Positions 1,610 to 47,263 are shown, counted from the first letter of the stretch. The stretch is 64,000 bases of DNA from a virus (IMGVR_UViG_3300028864_000019:1-64000), one strand, 5' to 3'. Notes: a model not told the origin generated them from the letters alone. Program-made: numbers and translations.

Positions 1610-2011
1610 CTATAACTTTTCATATAATTTCCCTCTAAGAACTTCTAATTGTTCTTTGAGCTTTCTATTTTCTTCTTGCAATTCTTTAATCTTTTTATCC
1701 TTAGCCATTATAATAATATTTTTCGATTTATCAGTTTTATCATATTTAAGTCTTTGCTTTATAACTTTTTCAGTTTGTTTATCTCTAAGTTCTTCAATTC
1801 TTTTCTTAATTTCAGCATTATTGTACATAAAAGTTTTAGATACACCACTTAGATTACAAACACTATTAAAGTTAATTTTCTGTTCGCCAAGCGACAGCTC
1901 TCGGATGGCTTTATCTACTTTTTCTAATGTTATTTTACTTTTATTTTTAGCATACTCATTTAAACCTTTTGTGCTTCCAACCATCTTAAGATTCCTCCCT
2001 TGACTTACCAT
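1610..2011 (-). CDS. tnpC: Tn554 TnpC-like (DUF6262) protein
   Basis: KVDKAIRELSLGEQKINFNSVCNLSGVSKTFMY HTH followed by coiled coil; position after recombinase. Confidence 0.8.
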   Translation of the reverse strand: MVSQGRNLKMVGSTKGLNEYAKNKSKITLEKVDKAIRELSLGEQKINFNSVCNLSGVSKTFMYNNAEIKKRIEELRDKQTEKVIKQRLKYDKTDKSKNIIIMAKDKKIKELQEENRKLKEQLEVLRGKLYEKL

Positions 2012-3644
2012 TCTTGTGAACTAATTTATATTGTCTAACTTTTTCTAATGTCTTTTCTAACATATCTAAATATTGTTGATTCTTTTCAGCCCAAAGTTCT
2101 CTACCAAACTTATTACTAGTTTCTATTTGGGTTTTAACCTTGTCTATTTCTTCTTCATATTCGGGAATATTTTCAGTTGTAGTACAGAAACTTGCACAAG
2201 TTAAGCAATGATTCATTTGTTGCTTACAAGGTAATTTGGAAGGCTTAAAACATACTCCAAAAGGAACTCTAACTGCATCTAAATTCTTTTTAACATATTC
2301 ATATCTAATCAAATTCTCGCCAGTATCAGAAGTTAAATCTATCTTTTCAAGGTCGTTAGTTTTGGTATCAACTTTGAAAAGTTCTAAGTCCTCAGTATCC
2401 TTCCATTTTTCGTAAAGAATATTTTCACTAACAGTCGCATAATGAACTGTCATTTGAAGGCTTCTATGACCTAAAATTTGTTGTATAATACTAATCCCAA
2501 TACCTTGTTCAACATATTCTTTAGCTCTTGTATGACGTAATGAATGAAGTTTAAAATGATATAACTCTCCATTAGCATTTCTAATATCTTTTTGTTCAAT
2601 TAGTCTTTTAATACAATCTACAAAAGTTCTTTTATTTATTGGAGTTCCTCTTAATTTTCCTTCATAAATATTAAATAAATACTTATTAGGATTATTTACT
2701 TCTGTACTTAATTCCTTAGCTTTATCAATAGACCTTTGAACCATTTCAGCAATTTTGTCTCTTATTGGAATTTTAAGTTGTGCTATTCCTGTCTTAGTTA
2801 TTTCACCACTTATTTTTATAAATACATGATTAGTTTCAACTTCTTCTGTATGATATTCAGCTATATATTCCATAAACATATCAGCCAAATTTTGATATAT
2901 ATCAATTCTTCTTGGACTTGATACTGTTTTTATTTCAGCATTATTCTCAAGCTCACCACGGTCTTTAAGGTCAATTATCATATTACTAATATCAAAGTCT
3001 TCAATCCATAATGACAAGGCTTCGCCGATGCGTATGCCAGTTTCATAAAGCAAGTTTAATAAAAATTTATCTCTAAAATTATTACAAGTGTTTATGAGTA
3101 TTGTTATTTCTTCCTTAGTTAATGTTTTAGGTTTAGACTTTGGAACTTTAAGCCTTAATATATTGCTTGTAACTTTCTTTTGTTCATGAGCAATTCCATA
3201 TAAGAATCCTTTAAAATTTCTACTTGGAGTAGATACAAACTTTTTAAGTCTCTCTGAAATATTATTGCTATATTCCTCATGTCTTAAAATATAATCATAG
3301 AAAGCTAAAACTGTATTTACCACGATATTTATGGTTCTTGGACTTCTTGCTGAATCTACTTTATTAGTTGGTATTACCTTTAAACTCTTATAAGGATTTT
3401 GTAACCAATTAACAAACAAAGCTAAATCATCAATAGTTACCTTTTGAAAGTCTAAATCTCTTTGTTCTAAATACTCAAAGTATAACTTCAAATGTTGACA
3501 ATACATTCTCAAAGTATTTCTTGCGAAATTAGTATTATCTTTAAATCTTATAAACTTCAATATTGATTCTATGGGTAGCCCATCATCGTCTGCTACAAAA
3601 TATCTCTCTTTATCATCTTCTGTTCTTACCTTTACTACTTCCAT
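1986..3644 (-). CDS. tyrosine recombinase, TnpA N-terminus fused to TnpB C-terminus
   Basis: ETGIRIGE (R), HSLRH, LGH, VHY; TnpA-like start, TnpB-like Cys-rich tail (GVC..PCKQQMNHCLTCASFCT). Confidence 0.8.
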   Translation of the reverse strand: MEVVKVRTEDDKERYFVADDDGLPIESILKFIRFKDNTNFARNTLRMYCQHLKLYFEYLEQRDLDFQKVTIDDLALFVNWLQNPYKSLKVIPTNKVDSARSPRTINIVVNTVLAFYDYILRHEEYSNNISERLKKFVSTPSRNFKGFLYGIAHEQKKVTSNILRLKVPKSKPKTLTKEEITILINTCNNFRDKFLLNLLYETGIRIGEALSLWIEDFDISNMIIDLKDRGELENNAEIKTVSSPRRIDIYQNLADMFMEYIAEYHTEEVETNHVFIKISGEITKTGIAQLKIPIRDKIAEMVQRSIDKAKELSTEVNNPNKYLFNIYEGKLRGTPINKRTFVDCIKRLIEQKDIRNANGELYHFKLHSLRHTRAKEYVEQGIGISIIQQILGHRSLQMTVHYATVSENILYEKWKDTEDLELFKVDTKTNDLEKIDLTSDTGENLIRYEYVKKNLDAVRVPFGVCFKPSKLPCKQQMNHCLTCASFCTTTENIPEYEEEIDKVKTQIETSNKFGRELWAEKNQQYLDMLEKTLEKVRQYKLVHKNGKSREES

Positions 3645-31556: not shown

Positions 31557-32972
31557 TTAAATTGCTTGTCCTAAATTTTCATTATGTAATAATTCTTTTT
31601 GTTTTATGTATTCATCAGAATATTTCCATTTCAAAGGTGTTCCATCTTCTAATTTACCACAATAAATTCTTGTTCCATTACAACATGAGTTTATATGTCT
31701 ATAAGATATTATTTTGTAATATTCTCCTGCTTCTTTAATCGTATTAAATTTTTTATTTGTAGTAACGCAAACATATTTTTCTTTACAATATACAATTGTT
31801 TTTGAATCATATGTATAATCTTGATTATACAATTCTTTTAATTTGTTTTCTATATCATATTTTATGTATTCTTCAGGAGTTAAATCTTCTATGTATTTCC
31901 ATTGTAATTTTGTTCCATCAAATAGTTTTCCACTATATTTTTGTTTCCCTTGACAACAATTTCCTATATGAGCATTATCTATATGATAAAATTTCCCAGC
32001 TCCTGCGATAGAATTAAAAACAATATTAAATGTTGTACAAATCACTTTTTTCTTAACTTCTTTTTTAATATAATTTTCTATATTCATTTTTTTAATACTA
32101 TTTATTTTATTTTGAATATCTATATCTGTCATATGTATATAATCTTCATAATAAGCCCAAATCAATCTTGTTCCATCAGGAAATCTACCCGATGTTGATT
32201 GTAATCCCCTGCAACATTTTCCTATCGTTCCACTGTCTTTTCTAAAACCACAATAGGTATTGGCATCACCTATACTTAAAAATATTTTTCTATTGTTAAG
32301 ACAAACTACCTTTTTAAATTGTACATTTAGTTCTATATCTTCCATTCGTTCTTCCGCTTTATGTATTGTATAATCATTTAAGTACATCCATACCATTTTT
32401 TCACCTGTAATTGGATTTAATCCTGCATATCTATATTCTCCTTTACATGCTAAACTAATTGTTTTTCTGTCTATATTATATTTTTTACCAGCTTGTTTAA
32501 GTGATAAAAAGGTTTCATTTGTGTTAACACATATAACAGGTAAAGATACTTCCAATTTAGATATTCTATTTTTATTTTTAGATTCCTCAGTATGTTGAAA
32601 TCCACAACCACTTCCACCGCCAATATTTTTATTGTATCCATATTTCCTATTATCAGAATCATAATAAGAAATCCAACATTGCTCTTTGATATTTAATTCT
32701 TCTTGGGAAAAAGCAATATCAAATACTTCTACTATTTCAAAAGCTTTAAATCCATGTGTTTTTATAGAACTTAATAAATGTTTATTTGCGTCTAATTTTC
32801 TTTTTAATCTACCTTTATGGTAATTATATACTCTTTCAATTCCTGTACCTTTGTAATTATATCTTTTATAAAAACCACCTTCTTGTGCGGTTTGTCCAAT
32901 ATAAACTTTGCCATTAACAATATTTGTTATTCTGTATATAATCCCATACACTTCTAAATTCCCTATTTTCAT
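31557..32972 (-). CDS. GIY-YIG homing endonuclease with NUMOD1-type repeats
   Basis: GIIYRITN..VYIGQT; repeated VIC..T..F.S...A...Y.I....I..CC.G; ATG at 32972 after GAAGGTG. Confidence 0.88.
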   Translation of the reverse strand: MKIGNLEVYGIIYRITNIVNGKVYIGQTAQEGGFYKRYNYKGTGIERVYNYHKGRLKRKLDANKHLLSSIKTHGFKAFEIVEVFDIAFSQEELNIKEQCWISYYDSDNRKYGYNKNIGGGSGCGFQHTEESKNKNRISKLEVSLPVICVNTNETFLSLKQAGKKYNIDRKTISLACKGEYRYAGLNPITGEKMVWMYLNDYTIHKAEERMEDIELNVQFKKVVCLNNRKIFLSIGDANTYCGFRKDSGTIGKCCRGLQSTSGRFPDGTRLIWAYYEDYIHMTDIDIQNKINSIKKMNIENYIKKEVKKKVICTTFNIVFNSIAGAGKFYHIDNAHIGNCCQGKQKYSGKLFDGTKLQWKYIEDLTPEEYIKYDIENKLKELYNQDYTYDSKTIVYCKEKYVCVTTNKKFNTIKEAGEYYKIISYRHINSCCNGTRIYCGKLEDGTPLKWKYSDEYIKQKELLHNENLGQAI

Positions 32973-33081
32973 GTCTGCACCTTCTTCTATTAATTTATTG
33001 CCAAACCATATAAAGTTAATTATTTTCAAATTTAAGGGAAGCAATTATACTTCCCACATTACCTATAAATAACCCATTTAT

Positions 33082-34422: not shown

Positions 34423-35080
34423 TTATATATCTCCATTCTTTTTAATTTATTAATTATTCTTAGCTGTTTTTCAAACTTGTACATTAAATTTAGCTACTAT
34501 TGGCTTAGATTGTTTTGTATTACCTACCGTATAATAGATTTCAACAGTATTTTTATCTATGTATACTGGTTCTTCAAAACTAACGTTAATTGATAATTTA
34601 CTTGTATCCATATTTCTCACCTACTTATATTTAATATTAATACATTAATTTGTTGTTATCAATATTTTCTTTGGAATATTTTTCTAAATTTATTTATAAG
34701 AGAGTTTTGATTATTCAATTTTTAAACTTCCATTTACTCTCTCATACTCCAGTTTACTCCGTTTTTCAAACATAAAAACCCTTTAAAATTTCCCTTTTAC
34801 TTAAAAATTGTTATATTAATTTATTTATCTCGTATATGTTTTAAATATTTCATTTTCTCTAATCTCGCATTTAGTTTGTAGTCTACAAAGCGATACAACG
34901 AATAATACTGTAAAACTTATTATTATTCCTAAAATTATTAACATTATTATTTCCCCCTTATTTGATTATTTTTATCTCATATAGAGTTTCATTATCTATA
35001 TCATTAACTGTATGTAGCCCTAATAACTTATCTAATACTATTAACCCTATTACTATCAATATTCCTTCTAACATCTTATC

Positions 35081-35728
35081 TTACACGCTTCCTTTCTTCC
35101 TATTTATTAATTTTACAAATTTCTCTTGTTCATTTAATTCATATTCTGCATAAGATTTTGATACTGAATTTATTAAGTGTTGCTTTTGTTGTAATGATTT
35201 ATATTTAATTTTAACAGTGATTCCTTTTATCTTAGGCAATGTATCAGTTATTCCATAAATATGATCTTCATTAACTTCAATAATATTATCTTTATGTTCA
35301 TGTGAAGGGCTTCTCATATATTCTACTTTTAATATTTCGTCCACTTCATTCAATATATCACCGTTCATTTGTAATTGTCTTTTGTGATATCCGTTTTCAT
35401 AATTCAACTGGGTTAAATGATTATCTTGATTACTTATTTTCTTTTCTTGTACTTGAAATCCACCTAGTTGTCTAACTAGCATTTCCATTGTTTTTAGTTC
35501 ATTCTTTGCCTCTCTCCGAGCTTGTCTAAGTTTTTGTAATGACTTCGCTAGTTGCCACCCTGTATATAAATCGAATTTCCCTAATCCTTCTATCTTATGT
35601 AGTAAATCTTGTTGTACATCATTAAAGACTTTTTCTTTTATCTTAAGTTTATTATAATATTCTTTAGCTTCTATGATATTTGTATTAATTTGATTAGCGT
35701 AACTTGTAGCTTTACACAATTTAATCAT
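35081..35728 (-). CDS. coiled-coil phage protein
   Basis: QQDLLHKIE..L.KLRQARREAKNE. Confidence 0.75.
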   Translation of the reverse strand: MIKLCKATSYANQINTNIIEAKEYYNKLKIKEKVFNDVQQDLLHKIEGLGKFDLYTGWQLAKSLQKLRQARREAKNELKTMEMLVRQLGGFQVQEKKISNQDNHLTQLNYENGYHKRQLQMNGDILNEVDEILKVEYMRSPSHEHKDNIIEVNEDHIYGITDTLPKIKGITVKIKYKSLQQKQHLINSVSKSYAEYELNEQEKFVKLINRKKGSV

Positions 35729-35835: not shown

Positions 35836-36792
35836 TTAGTCCGTTATTTCAACTTTATAGTTAATCATAGCTATGTATAGGTGTTCAGGAATCTGATCTT
35901 TATAATCATTTGCTACTTGCTTAATTCGATTTTCCTTAAATTCTTTATAAGATTGAAATGCTTCTATTTTAGTATCAAATGTCCCAAGATATATACTTTT
36001 ATTATTCTTATCTGTGCCTTTTGCTCTAATTTTCCCATCTTTCTTATTTAAACTAACACCAATAGGAAAATCCCCTCTATAATTCTTTCTATTAATAAAC
36101 AAATTATTTATCCTTTCTGGAACAAAACAACAAGTATCAGGTGAATATATTTTATTTCCCTTAATTAGAATATCTTTATCAAGACACATTTTCTCTCCTT
36201 CTATCTCATAATAATTTTCTTTATACCAGCGTACAAAATTCTCAAAATTGTACCATTCTTCTGCTACAATACAATCTTTATATGTAGGATATTTTTCTTT
36301 ATACTTTTTACTATAACATCTAGTCATCATACTATTCCACTTATAGTATTCTTTACTTGTACTATTGTTTTCGTTTAAAACACTTACCTTATGGGCAATT
36401 CTATTAGTACAATTACTAACTTTTCCTTTTTTAAAATTGTCATATTGCGTTTTAACTCTATATCCACCTTCAAATTCAACTATAATATTTTGTGTATTAA
36501 TGTACTCTACAATAGTCATTTTAATACCATGATTGTTATATTTTACTTCTCCAGTTCTATCAATAAGACATGCCCTTTTAGAATTTTGTTTTTCATAGTC
36601 TGAATTTTTTATTAATCCTCTTTTAAAATTATTATATGTTTTATTATAAGATATGTAACCATCTTCAAACTCAATATCTACATCGTTACATCCTCGATAT
36701 TCTTTAATCCACATCCTTAGCCCTTGAGTGTTAATATTTTCTTCACCTATTCTATTTAATAATTTTTCTTTCATTATTTTTCTCCTTTTCAA
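35836..36792 (-). CDS. HNH-type homing endonuclease with AP2-like C-terminus
   Basis: W.SM.TRCY..PTYKDC.V..EW.NF.NF..W..LDKDIL.KGNKIYSP.TCCFVP; YLGTFDT. Confidence 0.82.
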   Translation of the reverse strand: MKRRKIMKEKLLNRIGEENINTQGLRMWIKEYRGCNDVDIEFEDGYISYNKTYNNFKRGLIKNSDYEKQNSKRACLIDRTGEVKYNNHGIKMTIVEYINTQNIIVEFEGGYRVKTQYDNFKKGKVSNCTNRIAHKVSVLNENNSTSKEYYKWNSMMTRCYSKKYKEKYPTYKDCIVAEEWYNFENFVRWYKENYYEIEGEKMCLDKDILIKGNKIYSPDTCCFVPERINNLFINRKNYRGDFPIGVSLNKKDGKIRAKGTDKNNKSIYLGTFDTKIEAFQSYKEFKENRIKQVANDYKDQIPEHLYIAMINYKVEITD

Positions 36793-36877
36793 TTTACTTT
36801 TAAACTAACAAGAGAGTAATTCCAAGATTTCTCCCAGTCTTACTCTCTTATTGATACCGACTTCTAATTAATAATGA

Positions 36878-36997
36878 TTATCCACGGTCAGAAGGACCAG
36901 CCCATGCAACTAATGTAGTAACGATCATTGATGTAATTATTATAGCCATCATCATAAAGTATTTAACTCTAGCTTTTGTGTTTTTGCTTATCTTCAT
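36878..36997 (-). CDS. secreted signalling propeptide, AimP/Phr-like: MKISKNTKARVKYFMMMAIIITSMIVTTLVAWAGPSDRG (39 aa; not in ORF track)
   Basis: Strong RBS GGAGGAGAGGTGA (37016-37004); basic N-region, hydrophobic core, A-W-A signal peptidase site; predicted mature GPSDRG. Confidence 0.85.
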   Translation of the reverse strand: MKISKNTKARVKYFMMMAIIITSMIVTTLVAWAGPSDRG

Positions 36998-37090
36998 TTT
37001 TGTTCACCTCTCCTCCATATGTACTATTAGCATAAGATTTACTTATACTAAATTGTAAATATGGAAGAAATTATCTTTTGTTTATTTAAT

Positions 37091-37744
37091 TTAGCTTACT
37101 TTATTATTTCTTTTTTCTTCTTCTTTTAATAACAATACATTTTTATATAATGCAACATCTGTTTTTTTAATTTCTTTTTCAAAACATTCAAATTGATCTT
37201 GATATTGTTTATTATTGTTATGTAATAATATGTCCATTATTTGTAGGACAATATTATCATTACGCTCTAGCAAACTTATATTAAATTTTGCTGTTAATTT
37301 ATTAAAATAACCCATTGTATCATTTGGAGTGCATGTTTTAAACGCATCATAATATTCCTCATATGCTTTTATTTTCTCCTCATTGCTCAATTCATCTTTA
37401 TAACTATCTATATAATTATTAAGGGCTTTACTATACTTGTGTTTATTCTCTTTTTTATAATTAGGAATTGAATTCAATTCATCTAATAGTAATTTCGAAT
37501 GTAATTTTGCTGATTGTAAGTGTTCAGGCTTTTTGGTTAATAGTTCTGCCACAACTAATCCATTTAATAACAATCTCCTGTTTTCTATTTTTTTTAATTT
37601 GTCGTGCATTTGAAGAAATAATTTTTGTAATTCAATTATTGCTTTATCTATATCACCTTTTTTACCATTAACCCCGTCCCAAATATCATATGCCTCATCT
37701 AATTTCTTTTTAAATAGTCGTTCAATGGCATCTTCATTTATCAT
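37091..37744 (-). CDS. all-helical TPR-like protein, putative peptide receptor (RRNPP/AimR-like sensor domain, no HTH)
   Basis: Helical pairs with spaced Asn (LLLNG, ALNNY, AKFNI); directly upstream of the propeptide gene. Confidence 0.6.
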   Translation of the reverse strand: MINEDAIERLFKKKLDEAYDIWDGVNGKKGDIDKAIIELQKLFLQMHDKLKKIENRRLLLNGLVVAELLTKKPEHLQSAKLHSKLLLDELNSIPNYKKENKHKYSKALNNYIDSYKDELSNEEKIKAYEEYYDAFKTCTPNDTMGYFNKLTAKFNISLLERNDNIVLQIMDILLHNNNKQYQDQFECFEKEIKKTDVALYKNVLLLKEEEKRNNKVS

Positions 37745-37775
37745 CTTAATGCAACCCCTTTAATCCTCATATATT

Positions 37776-38546
37776 TTACATGACTACAGATTCATCTCCT
37801 GTTTTATATATTTTATAATAATCTCTATAGTCTAATCCATTTTCTTTACAAATGTCTTCTAGTTCCATTAAAAATATTTCTCTTTCTTCTAATAAATGTT
37901 TGACTAAACTTTCAGTCTTTCTTCTTGCTATGGCTTTTTCATAAGTGTGTATGTCTTCTAATTTTTCTTCTAATCTAATTCTTATTTCTTTATTTAATTT
38001 CTCCAATGGCGTTTTCTCTTTTAAATCTCCTAATTGAATGTTTCGGGCATTATCTATGCGTTTCATGGTCAATTCGTCCACAGTACCAACATAAGTAAGC
38101 AAATCATATCTAACGTCTATAGTTGTTATTTGTTCTGTAAGAACTAGAGATTTTTCTTTTAAACCAAAATTCTCAATCTCGACGTGAACAGGAATATTAG
38201 CTTTTGACGATACTTTGCTTGTGATTGGGAATCCATTTACGATAGTTGAATATTGATTACTTAAACTATTTGAGGTTATTAAAAATGGACGTATATTACA
38301 TTGGCAACTACCATTCCTTTTCCCTAAATTAACATACCAAATTTCACATCTTTTTGCTCTTTTAATCTCTCTATATTTTGTTTCGTTATTTAATTTATTA
38401 TTACTATAACTACTCATTAGTTGATCAATTCTTTTGGTGTCCACAACTCCTCCTTTATTTGGAACATCATTTATAGCTATTTCTTTTTCTGCCAATTTAT
38501 CTCTTAATTCTTTTAATCTATTATCATTTTCTAATAAAGTTAGCAT
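37776..38546 (-). CDS. mazF: MazF/PemK-family endoribonuclease with N- and C-terminal extensions
   Basis: KRCEIWYVNLG..GS.Q..IRPFLITSN..N..S.IV..FPITS..HVEI..S.VLTEQITTID aligns by eye to B. subtilis EndoA; ATG 38546 after GAAGGTGG. Confidence 0.85.
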   Translation of the reverse strand: MLTLLENDNRLKELRDKLAEKEIAINDVPNKGGVVDTKRIDQLMSSYSNNKLNNETKYREIKRAKRCEIWYVNLGKRNGSCQCNIRPFLITSNSLSNQYSTIVNGFPITSKVSSKANIPVHVEIENFGLKEKSLVLTEQITTIDVRYDLLTYVGTVDELTMKRIDNARNIQLGDLKEKTPLEKLNKEIRIRLEEKLEDIHTYEKAIARRKTESLVKHLLEEREIFLMELEDICKENGLDYRDYYKIYKTGDESVVM

Positions 38547-38636
38547 TACGACCACCTTCCGCTTAATTAATTCCTTCTTAATTTCCAATTAAAATTACTT
38601 TTTTATATACTTTAATTTGTTTCATCTCATGTTTAA

Positions 38637-38880
38637 ATTTTACTGCTAATTCCATTTCTTGTCAATACCTTTTTCCAATTATTTATAATTTATTTTTAAC
38701 TTCTTTATTAATTTGTTTTGTCAATTCCTATATTCTTATATTACTACTTATTTCCAAACCTGTCAATAACCTTTTTAAATATTTTTTGTTTATACAATAA
38801 TTTGTTTAATATCTTGTCCATGAGTTAATAATACACCTACCTGAATACAATGTCAACAACTATTTAATAAATTAATGTAA
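38637..38880 (-). promoter_or_regulatory. three tandem sigmaA promoters upstream of the mazF-TPR-peptide operon
   Basis: TTGACA-17-TATTAT (38856-38828), TTGACA-17-TAATAT (38766-38738), TTGACA-17-TAAAAT (38665-38637). Confidence 0.72.
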
Positions 38881-38902
38881 TAAGTTTTAGACTTTAAAAT
38901 AT

Positions 38903-38932
38903 AAAAGAAAGACTAGAAATTACTTCTAGTCT
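38903..38932 (-). terminator. intrinsic terminator after the integrase-fold repressor gene
   Basis: AGACTAGAA/TTCTAGTCT stem followed by TTCTTTT on the minus strand. Confidence 0.75.
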
Positions 38933-38933
38933 A

Positions 38934-40091
38934 CTACTCTATATCAACAGCGTCAAAGCCGATTGATGCACAAATATCTTTAACTGTTTGATATGAGTTT
39001 GGATCTATTACTTTAAACTCTGCTGTTTTAGCTTTAAAACTTCCTGTTTGTCGCTTGATAACATTATCTCCAGTCAAACTCTCATATCTCTTTCTCATCA
39101 TAGCGACTGATGTAGCATTAATTTTAGATTCATTGAAAATCTTAATTATAGCTTCAATATCATATGAACTAATCTTTCTCTCTTTTCTAATTTGTAATAA
39201 TAATTCAAACTCTCTAGTAAATAATAAATCGTTAAAAGAAATTCTATCTATTTTTTCTGCATCTATTACTTCTTCTTTTCGTTTTTTATTTAATAATTTA
39301 AACGCAGTAAACACTCTACTATTTACAGTATTATAATTAGCTATTTCTCTCGTATTAATTACATATGCGTCAGATTGGAATAATTGTTTTATTGATTCTT
39401 CTTCTACAATACTATCTACTTCTAATAAAAACTCTATAAATCTATCATCAATCGGCATCAATGTTATAAACTCTTCATTCTCATTATAAACACTGATAAA
39501 TTTGTTTACTACATCTATATCTTTATATCTCAATCGTCTCATATAAATCACTTCTCTACCTAAAACACCATATCGAGCTAATAATAGTGGCTTTATATTT
39601 TCTGAACCAACACACTCTTTCATTTCTCTCATTAAACTATAAAATTCATCCATATTGTATAATTTAGTTTGAAGTAGTTTTTTACTAGATTTTAGAGTCT
39701 TCATAGATTCTACTCCGGACAATGGGTTAACAGATATATCCCCTTTTTCAATATAGTATTCAAAATACTTATTAACAAACAGTTTTATAGTTCCCATTGT
39801 ACTCTCCATAGCATATATGAAGCTATTTAGCATAGATACTACTTCGTTACTCTTAAAGTCTTTTAAATCTTTATTTTTAGCAACTTCATAATCATGGATA
39901 TTGTTATTATAAACCGACCATAAAGGCTTTTTAGTTATTTCGTCCTCATAAGTATTATTTAACCACACAATCTTATCTATTTGAAATTGGTCATATTCAC
40001 CTAAGATTCTTTGCTTTTCCTTTTCTGTTGCTTCAGGTGTATCTCTTTCGTATTTTTGACCTATAAATTCTAAATTTTCTTTAAGCAACAC
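38934..40091 (-). CDS. integrase-fold protein lacking catalytic motifs, SPbeta YopR/MrpR(SroF)-like master repressor
   Basis: Core-binding domain (YE...KDL..F..; YFEYYIEKG..NP) and LLARYGV.G..LRYKDID without the catalytic R or HxxR; follows the DndB-like gene. Confidence 0.7.
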   Translation of the reverse strand: MLLKENLEFIGQKYERDTPEATEKEKQRILGEYDQFQIDKIVWLNNTYEDEITKKPLWSVYNNNIHDYEVAKNKDLKDFKSNEVVSMLNSFIYAMESTMGTIKLFVNKYFEYYIEKGDISVNPLSGVESMKTLKSSKKLLQTKLYNMDEFYSLMREMKECVGSENIKPLLLARYGVLGREVIYMRRLRYKDIDVVNKFISVYNENEEFITLMPIDDRFIEFLLEVDSIVEEESIKQLFQSDAYVINTREIANYNTVNSRVFTAFKLLNKKRKEEVIDAEKIDRISFNDLLFTREFELLLQIRKERKISSYDIEAIIKIFNESKINATSVAMMRKRYESLTGDNVIKRQTGSFKAKTAEFKVIDPNSYQTVKDICASIGFDAVDIE

Positions 40092-41517
40092 GTAGCACCT
40101 CCACTGTTAAATTTGCAAAATAATTATACACATCTTTATAATTACACGTATTTGGACTATTCTTTAATTTTAATTTTTTTAGTTCAGATTCTGGAATTGA
40201 ATATATATTATCAACAATCTCATCTATCCTATTATAATCTCCTAGTACTCTCATTGTATTTGCAATCGCAAGATAACCAACAAACATATTGCAGTCTAAA
40301 AGACTACTGTTATTTTTCATTTCTTCTATATCATCATTAAAATATTTAAATTTCAATGTATCAATTAATTCATCAATTGTTGAACCCAATTTTTTTGATA
40401 TATCTCTAACTAATCCTTTTTTCTCTACAGGAATTTCGGTTAATGTTAAAGCATCTAATAATATAGTTTTATAAGTTAACTTTCTTACCATTTTACGTTC
40501 TTCAAAATTTAATGCAATTTCGTCTTTTAATACTGTTGAATTCTCTTCAATTAATTTCAAGAAATCTACATCATCGCCTTGTTTAAATCCTTTAATAAAT
40601 TCAGGATTTGTATCTGATCTCTCGAATATTTGTCTGATTAATTCTTGAGCATCAGATAAACTTCTCAATACAACCCTAATATCTAGACCACCTTGTAATA
40701 TAGCACCGTTATTTTGTGCTTTATACTGTTCTACAGCTTGATATACTGCTAACATTCTATGAAAACCATCTAACATATCTATAACTGTGAAAGTCTCACT
40801 ATCTAAATCATAATTCGGACTTACATATAAAGTTCCTACATTTGGGTATTTTTCTTCATCTATTGATTCATAATGGCGATTAGGTTCAAAATTTTCCTCT
40901 CCTTCAGCAAGTCTAATATTCACAATTATTTGAGTATCTTCTAATTTTTTGGTTTTAGACAATAATAAATTTGTCATTGCGTCAACATTTTTCTGATTAA
41001 TATCAATAATTCTAACTGAATCGTCTTTAGTCCCTAACGATTTTGTCTTGTATGCTCTCTGAGATAATTTGTTATATCTGAATAGTACAAATTTAATATA
41101 ATTATAGATTTGTTCATATGTGATTCGCCCAACATAGTTATAATTATCTACTTTTTGCATAAAAGGCAATACTACTTGTGTTACCTTCTTCTCTACATTA
41201 GTAAAACTATTATAGTCTAAAATATCTGTATCGCTAAAATATTTTCTATAGTTTAATTTTTCTAATGCTAAAACCTCATAGCAAACCTTAGTAATAGCAA
41301 TTTTTTCTTCTTTAGATAATTTGTTTAATTTAACTGAACCGTCTAAAAACAATCCTGCTGTGATGTTTGTATTCAAATTCTTTTTAGCCAATTCTACATT
41401 AATTGATTTAATCAGCCCTTTATTTTTAAATTCTTTATTAACCACATTTTCTAATTCTTTATTTAAATTGTCCTGACTATAAATCATGACTTCTTGTTGT
41501 CCTTGTTTAAGTTCCAT
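40081..41517 (-). CDS. DndB/ParB-like (DGQHR family) protein, SPbeta YopQ/SroE-like
   Basis: YNKLSQR, IIVN, IDMLDGFHRMLA; overlaps the repressor gene. Confidence 0.72.
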   Translation of the reverse strand: MELKQGQQEVMIYSQDNLNKELENVVNKEFKNKGLIKSINVELAKKNLNTNITAGLFLDGSVKLNKLSKEEKIAITKVCYEVLALEKLNYRKYFSDTDILDYNSFTNVEKKVTQVVLPFMQKVDNYNYVGRITYEQIYNYIKFVLFRYNKLSQRAYKTKSLGTKDDSVRIIDINQKNVDAMTNLLLSKTKKLEDTQIIVNIRLAEGEENFEPNRHYESIDEEKYPNVGTLYVSPNYDLDSETFTVIDMLDGFHRMLAVYQAVEQYKAQNNGAILQGGLDIRVVLRSLSDAQELIRQIFERSDTNPEFIKGFKQGDDVDFLKLIEENSTVLKDEIALNFEERKMVRKLTYKTILLDALTLTEIPVEKKGLVRDISKKLGSTIDELIDTLKFKYFNDDIEEMKNNSSLLDCNMFVGYLAIANTMRVLGDYNRIDEIVDNIYSIPESELKKLKLKNSPNTCNYKDVYNYFANLTVEVLRVA

Positions 41518-42839: not shown

Positions 42840-43133
42840 ATGTATTACTTACCGATAAAAAAGATAAGGCATCTCAAGGGTATGACATTGAAAGAACTAT
42901 CAGAAAAAACTGGATTATCTATTTCTTATTTGAGTAGATTAGAAGACGATAATAGCACTAGAAGTCGGACTCCAACTTTAATAACTTTAGAAAAAATTGC
43001 AATCGGGCTTTCGGTATGTCCAACAGATTTAATCTTTTACTTATGCACTAATTGTCAAATAAACAACTGTAAAAAGAGAGATAGTATAGATTTAAATAAG
43101 TTAATTGAAGAAAATTTAAACTTTTATATTTAA
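42840..43133 (+). CDS. XRE/SinR-like HTH regulator with Cys-rich tail
   Basis: IKKIR..KGMTLKELSEKTGLSISYLSRLE..PTLITLEKIA. Confidence 0.85.
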   Translation: MYYLPIKKIRHLKGMTLKELSEKTGLSISYLSRLEDDNSTRSRTPTLITLEKIAIGLSVCPTDLIFYLCTNCQINNCKKRDSIDLNKLIEENLNFYI

Positions 43134-45543: not shown

Positions 45544-46089
45544 TCATTTGTCATTTTCTATATATTTAATAATTTCTTCTTTAAATTTTCTTAATTTTTG
45601 CAACTCTTCATCATCAGTTAATCCTAATAAATAATCGATACTAACATTGAGTAATTCAGCCATTAAAATTAGTTTTTCCGTATCTGGATAATTGACTCCA
45701 GTAGTATATTTACTGACTGTAGATTTTGTTATATTTAGTTTTTTTGCTAGTTCAGATTGTGACATATCGTTTTTATATAATACACCAATTAATCTTTTTG
45801 CAAAAATTTCTTTATTATTAGGATTATTTAACGCTTCATTTAAATTATTTTCAACTGTAAAATCTTTATTACTTATTTCTGTTACATATAACAAATCATC
45901 AATACTAATTTTCAATACCTTTGCTATGTTTGAAAGAATTTCCATTCTTGGAGTCCTATTACCTGTTAGATATCTTGATATTGTGGCTTCCGTTACCCCT
46001 ACTTTCTCTGAGAACTCTTTTTGAGTTAAATTAACAATTTCTAATTCTGCCGCAAGTCTTTCAGCAAATGTTTTATTAATGTTTCTCAC
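45544..46089 (-). CDS. tandem double XRE-HTH regulator
   Basis: Two FA.RL..L..Q.E.A.K...T..T.S.Y..G...P..E.L...A..L..SID.LL units. Confidence 0.88.
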   Translation of the reverse strand: MRNINKTFAERLAAELEIVNLTQKEFSEKVGVTEATISRYLTGNRTPRMEILSNIAKVLKISIDDLLYVTEISNKDFTVENNLNEALNNPNNKEIFAKRLIGVLYKNDMSQSELAKKLNITKSTVSKYTTGVNYPDTEKLILMAELLNVSIDYLLGLTDDEELQKLRKFKEEIIKYIENDK

Positions 46090-46339: not shown

Positions 46340-47263
46340 TTATAAATCCTCCATAACGTTTTTCATACGCTCTTCGTCCATTGTTATATATACTCTCGAA
46401 GTGTTGATATTTTCATGCCCTAAAACTTCTGCTACCATTAAAATATCTTTAGTTTTTCTGTATACATTAGTTCCTACGGTATGCCTTGTAGTATGTGTTA
46501 CATATTTCTTATCTGTAAGACGTGCTATTTTGTATAATTTTTTCATCATAACTTGCACTGAACTTTTATCAATACCCCTTCTAAAATTTGATATGAATAG
46601 AACATTCTTATATTCCTCATCAACACCTTCTACTATTCTATTTTCCATATATTCTTTTATTGCTTCTAAACATTTTTTATTTAAATAAACAGAATCTTCT
46701 TTATTTCCTTTTCTTAATATTAGTAATTTATTTTCTTGAATATCATTTAGTTTTATATGAGCAAGTTCTGAAACACGAATACCAGTATTTAATAGTATAG
46801 TCACAATACATTTATTTCTATAATAAAACATATCTTCACGATTCAAAGCATCATATATTTTTTCAACTTGTTCATCTGTAAATGCTATTGGAATTTTCTT
46901 ACCTATTTTGGGGCTATCTAAATCTTCTGCTATATTTGTAGCTACAATATTTTCTTTACGCAAATATTTCCAATAAGATCTTAAACAAGCAACCTTTCTA
47001 GCTCTTGCATATTCTGAATTTTCTAGTTTATTTTTTGAATAGTTTATAAATTTATTTAAATCGTATGTTTGTAATGATTTTAATGTTTTATTGGAAATTT
47101 CTTTTTTATTTTTGTAATCTTTCAAGAATGTAAAAAATACTCTTAAATCTGATTCATACCCTGATATTGTTGTTTTAGCTTTATTATCTGTATTTAATTG
47201 TTCTAAAAAATCCATTGCTGATAATGGTAATTTTATATTATTTTTCTTTTCCATGATTGTCAC
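46340..47263 (-). CDS. XerC/XerD-like tyrosine recombinase, catalytically intact
   Basis: TISGYESDL, RARKVACLRSY, TGIRVSE, RKGNKE, THTTRH, LGHE..RVY. Confidence 0.92.
   Translation of the reverse strand: MTIMEKKNNIKLPLSAMDFLEQLNTDNKAKTTISGYESDLRVFFTFLKDYKNKKEISNKTLKSLQTYDLNKFINYSKNKLENSEYARARKVACLRSYWKYLRKENIVATNIAEDLDSPKIGKKIPIAFTDEQVEKIYDALNREDMFYYRNKCIVTILLNTGIRVSELAHIKLNDIQENKLLILRKGNKEDSVYLNKKCLEAIKEYMENRIVEGVDEEYKNVLFISNFRRGIDKSSVQVMMKKLYKIARLTDKKYVTHTTRHTVGTNVYRKTKDILMVAEVLGHENINTSRVYITMDEERMKNVMEDL

Follow-up and report, generated by a model that had tools for sequence, protein, structure and literature searches.

A predicted secreted hexapeptide encoded beside a putative TPR receptor gene and a MazF-like gene in apparent relatives of phage SPbeta

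Peptide communication between phages is known almost exclusively from the arbitrium system and from phage-borne Rap-Phr pairs, both described in Bacillus phages. A short open reading frame (ORF) in the viral contig IMGVR_UViG_3300028864_000019 raises the question of whether a phage outside these groups encodes a secreted peptide signal of its own and, if so, which protein would sense it. The window analysed here (positions 1-64000) comprises the first 64 kb of this 111,869-bp IMG/VR record, which has a GC content of approximately 25% and is rated 54% complete by CheckV. A preliminary description of the window had singled out the segment 36878-37016 as an AimP-like propeptide gene whose product would release the peptide GPSDRG. 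Based on comparisons of sequence and gene order across seven distinct loci, we consider it probable that this ORF specifies a secreted hexapeptide signal, which would be sensed by a minimal tetratricopeptide repeat (TPR) receptor encoded in the same MazF-linked operon and would resemble RRNPP signals but mature in a single step.

The pre-peptide gene and its counterparts in related phages

The ORF in question and the elements with which it forms a predicted transcription unit are the following:

36878..36997, minus strand: pre-peptide gene of 39 amino acids (aa), comprising a basic N-region, a hydrophobic core, A-W-A, GPSDRG and the stop codon
36881..36898, minus strand: codons of the predicted mature hexapeptide GPSDRG, placed by applying the -3/-1 rule to A-W-A
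37016..37004, minus strand: Shine-Dalgarno (SD) site GGAGGAGAGGTGA, with a spacing of 6 nt to the ATG of the pre-peptide ORF
37091..37744, minus strand: gene for a 217-aa protein with a predicted TPR fold (AlphaFold2 and structure search), the presumed cytoplasmic peptide receptor
37776..38546, minus strand: gene for a MazF/PemK-like endoribonuclease (PF02452, E 9e-20; core residues 64-174)
36807..36852, minus strand: terminator-like hairpin closing the three-gene unit (-21.5 kcal/mol, z -3.4)

The start of the pre-peptide is unambiguous because an in-frame TGA lies two codons upstream of its ATG. Five Lys or Arg residues fall within positions 1-12, followed by about 20 uncharged residues that lead up to A-W-A. 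The strong ribosome-binding site and the Sec-type anatomy noted in the preliminary description are therefore real, and the segment given there corresponds to the ORF together with its SD site. The pre-peptide is already contained in gene-caller output, with an identical sequence on 23 contigs and a near-identical variant (P0001), distinguished by a single Met-to-Ile exchange in the hydrophobic core, on one further contig. A crude filter combining an SD site, a basic N-region, an uncharged hydrophobic run of at least 13 residues and a tail of at most nine residues, run over every start codon on both strands, returned three hits in the 111,869-bp genome, the pre-peptide ORF among them. In each of six related 12.6-kb loci, it returned a single ORF, located directly 3' of the TPR gene; in one of them (L011), two adjacent start codons of the same ORF both satisfied the filter.

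These six further distinct loci (L005, L006, L007, L008, L010 and L011) were obtained by alignment-based scans of IMG/VR, with L004, a near-identical copy of L005 from another record, not counted separately, so that DNA context was read for seven of the approximately 25 members of the receptor family. They lie on contigs of 115-229 kb, one of which is rated 100% complete and one of which carries direct terminal repeats. The same series of elements recurs on one strand in all seven loci: a YopQ-like gene (461-488 aa), a YopR/MrpR-like gene (369-415 aa), a spacer, a MazF-like gene, the TPR gene (205-220 aa), a small signal-peptide ORF (29-39 aa after its start was placed behind the SD site) and a terminator-like hairpin, 10-35 nt past the peptide stop. 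The TPR gene starts 12-31 nt after the MazF-like stop (31 nt in the window), and a further 37-95 nt separate it from the small ORF. Each of the seven small ORFs has a strong SD site (including GGAGGTGA, AGAGGTGA and GGTAGGTGA among the counterparts), two to five Lys or Arg residues at the N-terminus and a run of 16-21 uncharged residues. By these comparisons, the 39-codon ORF qualifies as a real, conserved gene, the last in a three-gene transcription unit, and the conservation in related phages that had been set as a test of the prediction is seen in seven distinct loci that keep a signal-peptide ORF after the TPR gene. AT-rich DNA does give rise to many short, Ile/Leu/Phe/Lys-rich frames that look hydrophobic, and a chance frame in intergenic DNA would have been an obvious explanation for a single locus. 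However, position, strand, SD site, signal-peptide anatomy and six-residue tail recur in seven loci whose TPR proteins share 22-60% pairwise identity, and we regard a chance ORF as effectively refuted by the comparative data, assigning it a negligible probability.

Further searches yielded no additional loci. Megablast and tblastn with the region and the 217-aa protein found no match among 50,697 phage records, and tblastn of the 39-aa peptide against phage records gave just one match at chance level (E 2). There was also no match in single-protein scans of IMG/VR with the TPR, MazF-like and YopQ-like proteins and with P0002, or in a scan with the alignment A8, and two scans each of metagenome contigs and genome contigs detected no match and no prophage copy in a sequenced host.

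Cleavage sites were assigned by the von Heijne -3/-1 rule alone. In all seven loci, a site of this kind, with Ala, Cys, Val or Ile at -3 and Ala or Ser at -1, is located exactly six codons before the stop (slash, predicted cut):

Window: AWA/GPSDRG
L005: CYA/ISSGRG
L006: ASA/GSIGRG
L007: VLA/TTGSKG
L008: AMA/GTSTRG
L010: ILS/SGGGWG
L011: VFS/SGNGWG

The sites in L010 and L011 are less clear-cut than A-x-A, and a cut one residue later is possible there. All seven tails end in Gly. A cut that leaves a C-terminal hexapeptide, as originally proposed, is thus predicted throughout, and the related proposal that signal peptidase could complete maturation in one step is consistent with all seven loci, given that the site abuts the hexapeptide. 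L006 and L008, the two most similar loci, share 90% identity in the spacer and terminator and 74% in the TPR gene and the signal-peptide codons, compared to 50% in the 18 nt of tail codons; residues 2-4 of the hexapeptide are all replaced, making the tail the most diverged segment. Such a pattern would be expected if a pheromone code were diversifying.

In all seven cases, the layout of n-, h- and c-region and the residues at -3 and -1 agree with those of Sec signal peptides from Gram-positive bacteria, although the length of the sequence would also allow an uncleaved anchor. The main rival explanation builds on this ambiguity and states that the product is a single-pass membrane micro-protein with its N-terminus inside and its six-residue tail outside, a non-diffusible molecule with a possible role in, for example, anchoring, the modulation of a host transporter or exclusion. 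The uncharged run could indeed span the membrane, and other small hydrophobic ORFs are found nearby in the same phages (34825..34944 and 34958..35074 in the window). However, conservation is poor in the core, whereas every locus retains the -3/-1 residues, a tail of six residues and its terminal Gly; in three loci, there is a Pro residue 4-9 positions ahead of the predicted cut, or the c-region is polar, as is typical of signal peptides; the conserved neighbour is a predicted soluble TPR protein; and the tail diverges faster than its flanks in L006 and L008, as pheromone codes typically do. On balance, we consider an uncleaved micro-protein rather unlikely.

Two other types of exported product were considered and rejected. 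For a lipoprotein signal, a lipobox is missing, with a Cys present in L005 alone, where it is combined with Gln at -3. For a leaderless hydrophobic pheromone of the SHP/PrgQ type, the tails are hydrophilic and preceded by a Sec-type signal.

The TPR-fold protein and its match to the peptide tails

The presumed receptor proved to be refractory to sequence-based annotation. The 217-aa protein had no match in Pfam (including the TPR and helix-turn-helix (HTH) models), PHROG or phage collections, and a profile search of PDB sequences returned nothing meaningful. When 1.8 billion representative proteins were searched exhaustively with HMMER, 25 relatives of about 200 aa were retrieved, the near-full-length ones spanning 169-229 aa and a few others being short fragments; the ten that were looked up were all metagenomic. 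AlphaFold2, by contrast, produced a model with a pLDDT of 93.4 and a pTM of 0.84, in which residues 4-216 form ten or eleven paired helices. The fold is predicted to be TPR because structure searches with this model return TPR proteins, including kinesin-light-chain-type repeats (Z 14.0), PlcR bound to PapR (Z 12.9, over PlcR residues 103-286, which constitute the PapR-binding domain), the Rap protein of phage phi105 with its peptide (Z 11.2), RapI (Z 10.9) and RapH (Z 10.6). In the Rap proteins, the alignment covers the TPR part (residues 88-287 of phi105 Rap and 89-284 of RapH) and not the N-terminal bundle. Foldseek found generic helical repeats only in the PDB (E ~0.01), and the ESM Atlas returned TPR folds by structure, with no named family. 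The 217-aa protein matches no HTH family, and its whole model aligns with TPR domains, leaving no room for a DNA-binding domain.

Comparison of the seven loci suggests that receptor and tail may form a pair. Tails of the type x4-[RK]-G occur with receptors of an 'IWD' subfamily, whereas SG[GN]GWG tails occur with receptors of a 'CFG' subfamily. The two subfamilies differ at W22/D23, E/D55, K/R106, N110 and K149 in the former, which are replaced by F/G, T, mixed uncharged or acidic residues, Y/F and M, respectively, in the latter. Acidic residues (D23, E/D55) are thus found where the peptide has Arg or Lys, and N110 and position 134 change to Tyr/Phe where the peptide has Trp. Most subfamily-specific positions appear to be located on the odd-numbered helices (1, 3, 5 and 7) of the AlphaFold2 model. 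In TPR proteins, the odd-numbered helices line the groove. The receptor changes run in a sensible direction for a receptor-ligand pair, which we take as suggestive, and the co-variation of hexapeptide and TPR pocket that had been proposed as a check is seen insofar as the tail class follows the receptor subfamily. In addition, the relatives of the TPR protein share a nearly invariant Asn (N155), which recalls, by analogy, the conserved Asn with which every RRNPP receptor contacts the backbone of its peptide (PMC6458997).

Known signalling systems, the MazF-like gene and a possible mode of action

The cassette shares a number of features with arbitrium. In both cases, a small phage ORF directly downstream of the gene for a TPR-fold protein encodes an N-terminal signal peptide and a C-terminal hexapeptide that is variable in its N-terminal half and conserved towards its C-terminus. 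Both are carried by phages with similarity to SPbeta (here indicated by YonO, YopQ and YopR-like proteins), the cassette adjoins yop lysogeny-control genes, and there is a link to MazF, as known for phi3T. The differences are equally clear. The receptors comprise 205-220 aa and lack an HTH, whereas AimR has 386 aa. A search for PF22871 (AimR) at E<=1 gave nothing in this genome and four related phage records, including the 100%-complete and terminal-repeat ones, whereas the positive control in B. subtilis scored above cut-off, and in BLASTP, the 217-aa protein reached E 0.15 at best with SPbeta AimR. There is no aimX-type target; instead, a terminator follows the peptide gene in all loci, with an HNH endonuclease gene beyond it in three of them and other genes in the rest. 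In SPbeta AimP (41 aa), by our own reading of the sequence, about 15 residues lie between the likely end of the signal peptide and GMPRGA, whereas the pre-peptide described here has no pro-region and its signal-peptidase site abuts the hexapeptide, so that one cut should suffice. Moreover, the cassette is positioned after yopQ/yopR, whereas arbitrium is found before yopM, and the MazF homologue is encoded by the phage here but by the host there. The label 'AimP-like' therefore holds for the architecture and the likely role but not for family membership, as there is neither a PF22871 match nor an HTH in the receptor. The same applies to the 'RG' that GPSDRG was said to share with arbitrium peptides: the resemblance exists, but the known motif is RGA or xxxxGG/A (PMC6458997), and the tails identified here terminate in RG, KG or WG instead.

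Rap-Phr systems, including the phage-borne Rap proteins of phi3T and phi105, provide a second point of comparison. Again, the receptor gene comes first and the peptide gene follows on the same strand, the pre-peptide is exported by Sec (a prediction in our case), the active peptide is C-terminal, and the receptor has no DNA-binding domain, so that it would need to act through protein-protein contact; moreover, the TPR domains of Rap proteins can be superposed on the model (Z 10.6-11.2). Rap has been described as the sole RRNPPA member without an HTH domain (PMC9765709). However, Rap proteins comprise about 375 aa and possess an N-terminal three-helix-bundle effector domain, which is absent from the 217-aa protein, their sequence relationship to the latter is undetectable, and Phr peptides require a second, extracellular protease cut. 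Judged by sequence, the cassette resembles arbitrium and Rap-Phr in its apparent way of working but belongs to neither.

More generally, the locus resembles the RRNPP signature in that it combines a small propeptide of presumed Sec type (29-39 aa; 10-100 aa in the signature) with an adjacent putative TPR receptor on the same strand, separated by a spacer that falls within the known range of -50 to 191 bp (PMC10075063). The model also aligns with the PapR-binding domain of PlcR, although the HTH of PlcR has no counterpart. By contrast, the receptors are smaller than validated ones (285-473 aa), fall outside the 250-500 aa considered by RRNPP_detector and match no TPR hidden Markov model (HMM) (PMC10075063). 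No published description of the cassette was found in the literature searched, which is explained by its failure to satisfy these length and HMM criteria (PMC10075063), and since computational screens require a receptor to be 250-500 aa long and to match TPR HMMs, the receptor family has probably been overlooked.

The first gene of the unit adds a further element. Its product, which matches PemK and EndoA in the PDB (E 3e-14 to 5e-12), retains the Arg of IRP and the Thr/Ser of ITS in all four loci of alignment A5. The core is flanked by a poorly conserved N-terminal and a well-conserved, helical C-terminal extension; the structure model, derived from four sequences, was poor (pLDDT 61) and used for secondary structure alone. 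No same-strand ORF above the cut-off applied (22-30 aa, depending on the analysis), and hence no adjacent MazE gene, was present between the YopR-like and MazF-like genes, either in the window or in the related loci. In L007 (4862-5978), which belongs to a 229-kb record with a completeness rating of 100%, a frameshift splits the MazF-like gene between the N-terminal extension and the PemK core. The frameshift may be due to decay or to an error in sequencing; both the TPR gene and the peptide gene of this locus are intact. The arbitrium system of phi3T operates via AimX, which is an antitoxin to the MazF of the host, and lysogenisation needs MazF activity (10.1101/2023.04.27.537455). A phage-borne MazF homologue beside a peptide/TPR pair and YopQ/YopR genes would, by analogy, fit this logic. 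There is likewise a parallel to MazEF and its extracellular death factor (EDF), since a MazF/PemK core with its catalytic Arg and Thr/Ser is found beside a short gene for a peptide predicted to be secreted; yet MazE is absent, the toxin carries N- and C-terminal extensions, the next gene encodes a TPR protein, and the peptide, rather than being a fragment of a housekeeping protein, has a dedicated signal-peptide gene.

This parallel leads to another explanation, in which the hexapeptide would act directly on the MazF-like RNase, in an EDF-like manner, and the TPR protein would be an antitoxin or chaperone rather than the sensor. Co-transcription of the peptide gene with the gene for a MazF homologue in which the catalytic Arg and Thr are preserved, the missing MazE gene and the short distance between the MazF-like and TPR genes would all be compatible with this idea, and an enhancement of MazF activity by penta- and hexapeptide quorum signals has been reported (PMC3668371). 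However, the subfamily-specific receptor residues track the type of tail, and the TPR and peptide genes have stayed intact in L007 despite the frameshift in the MazF-like gene. Moreover, to our knowledge, TPR grooves are the standard peptide-binding sites in all Gram-positive cytoplasmic pheromone receptors. We therefore judge a direct action of the peptide on the RNase to be improbable.

If the peptide is instead a signal read by the TPR protein, as we favour, the pre-peptide would be exported via Sec and cut by type I signal peptidase after A-W-A, yielding GPSDRG directly, with neither a pro-region nor a second protease involved. The hexapeptide would then build up outside infected or lysogenic cells, be re-imported by an oligopeptide permease (Opp) and bind to the concave groove of the 217-aa protein; we infer cleavage, export, re-import and binding from the features described above. 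Because it has no DNA-binding domain, the TPR protein would most likely act in a Rap-like fashion, holding or releasing a partner protein, and the best candidate for this partner may be the co-transcribed MazF-like RNase that lacks a MazE gene. In this way, peptide density could tune RNase activity and, hence, the lysis-lysogeny decision of the SPbeta-related phage. The coupling of the TPR protein to the RNase is the most speculative of these steps, and we propose it tentatively. It is tempting to speculate further that the ~210-aa TPR protein may represent a peptide-gated antitoxin, which would hold the phage MazF-like RNase inactive until the hexapeptide releases it, although we see this as a doubtful proposition. 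Similarly conjectural is the wider picture that would follow from it, namely a quorum signal that switches a phage-encoded toxin to control lysis and lysogeny, as an independent counterpart of AimR, AimX and host MazF. The cassette occurs in large (~200 kb or more) SPbeta-related phages that lack AimR and probably infect clostridial hosts.

Several points weigh against the signalling hypothesis. Tail and receptor co-vary across just two subfamilies, so that co-evolution is inseparable from shared descent, which confounds this part of the original proposal. The rapid divergence of the tail in L006 and L008 concerns only a few codons, and the uncharged run of the pre-peptide would also be compatible in length with an uncleaved membrane anchor. 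That the host possesses an Opp permease is an assumption. No Pfam TPR model matches the sequence of the 217-aa protein, and RRNPP receptors do not rank above generic TPR proteins among the structure matches of its model. Helical repeats often reach Z 13 through their arrangement alone. Finally, the frameshift in L007, with intact TPR and peptide genes, weakens the case for an obligate link to MazF.

If the hypothesis is correct, SPbeta-related phages with a GC content of ~25% and probably clostridial hosts would also signal by hexapeptides. Pheromone maturation by signal peptidase alone would make host exoproteases unnecessary, which would be useful for a mobile element, and a minimal, effector-less TPR module would suffice as a receptor. 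Furthermore, a signal that is genetically wired to a phage MazF would provide a direct handle on the proposed arbitrium-MazF link. The system is small, with three genes and a six-residue ligand, and directly testable with synthetic peptides.

Phage background, control elements and neighbouring genes

The genes and elements around the cassette that bear on its context are the following:

38934..40091, minus strand: gene for a YopR/MrpR-like protein, a repressor candidate of the inactive-integrase type (385 aa)
40081..41517, minus strand: gene for a YopQ homologue (478 aa; phrog_5732)
46340-47263, 1986-3644 and 45544-46089, minus strand: genes for two tyrosine recombinases (integrases) and a CI-type protein with two HTH domains
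42840-43133, plus strand: XRE-type HTH gene, the sole plus-strand gene of the region
38637..38856, minus strand: three tandem, near-consensus sigma-70-type promoter-like sites, TTGACA-17-TAxxAT (11, 10 and 11 of 12 positions)
38910..38932, minus strand: terminator-like hairpin between the YopR-like gene and the three-gene unit
37009..37070, minus strand: long RNA hairpin in the TPR-peptide spacer (-26.3 kcal/mol, z -6.5)

Multiple proteins indicate that the phage is, by sequence, a distant relative of Bacillus phage SPbeta. A homologue of the YonO-type single-subunit RNA polymerase (942 aa; genome positions 86699-89527, corresponding to L013 2699-5524) shows 35% identity to its counterpart in Clostridium phage D-1873 and 34% to that of SPbeta, over 96-98% of its length. 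In tblastn, the 478-aa protein matched SPbeta-group phages only (yopQ, 26% identity, E 2e-11). The 385-aa protein shows weak similarity to MrpR (PF22822, MrpR_N_CB, E 6e-5, which falls under the curated cut-off), to the integrase family phrog_5830 (6e-10) and, in BLASTP, to the N-terminal region of SPbeta YopR (E 1e-4). A temperate lifestyle is plausible because of the two tyrosine integrases and the CI-type double-HTH and XRE-type proteins. To judge from the GC content, the strong SD sites and the closest relatives in culture, the host may belong to the low-GC Bacillota, perhaps the clostridia.

The immediate surroundings also bear on the idea that the three genes constitute a defence or superinfection-exclusion cassette of the prophage, comprising a toxin and a TPR sensor, in which the peptide would mark kin lysogens rather than steer the lysis-lysogeny decision. 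Toxins of the MazF type have roles in abortive infection and in defence against phages (10.1101/2023.04.27.537455), PHROGs places the MazF-like gene in the class 'moron, auxiliary metabolic gene and host takeover', and the unit seems to have its own promoters and terminator, as is the case for moron genes; the promoter-like sites, found within 220 nt upstream of the MazF-like gene, represent consensus matches only. Yet, the cassette occupies a fixed place directly after the YopQ/YopR-like lysogeny-control genes in all seven loci, and in SPbeta, aimR-aimP is followed on the same strand, after a few other genes, by yopQ and yopR. A role in defence thus appears to be very improbable. The region 38637-38856 could, in addition, be a control region for the YopR-like repressor.

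Within the unit, no promoter of the peptide gene's own was predicted in the TPR-peptide spacer. Instead, the spacer contains the long hairpin listed above, whose 3' arm pairs with the 5' half of the peptide-gene SD site. Comparable hairpins (-26 to -33 kcal/mol, z -5.8 to -8.8) are found in all five subfamily-A loci, which have spacers of ~90 nt (L005 6633-6699, L006 6646-6715, L007 6661-6725 and L008 6638-6707, in addition to the window), and RNAalifold predicted 27 pairs for the five spacers, 12 of them with compensatory changes. The hairpin is not present in the two subfamily-B loci, and no Rfam family was found within 36600-39100. We read this element as a means of separate control of peptide-gene translation or of mRNA processing; alternatively, it may be a palindromic protein-binding site on the DNA.

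Downstream of the cassette terminator, a gene for an HNH-type homing endonuclease follows immediately in the window (35836-36792, minus strand), L005 (6920-8515) and L007 (6926-8500). It is not found at that spot in L006, L008, L010 and L011 and looks like a mobile insertion. A GIY-YIG-type endonuclease is encoded at 31557-33044 in the window. The two small hydrophobic ORFs near the cassette mentioned above (34825..34944 and 34958..35074) include the first member of a downstream gene pair that is common to the related phages and encodes a ~39-aa hydrophobic micro-protein ending in ...LKIIK and a ~210-aa protein with an ...EAKEYYNKLK... stretch near its N-terminus. Genes of this pair are located at the following positions:

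Window 34958-35074 and 35081-35728, minus strand
L006 6992-7111
L008 6917-7045
L007 8612-9250
L010 6935-7558

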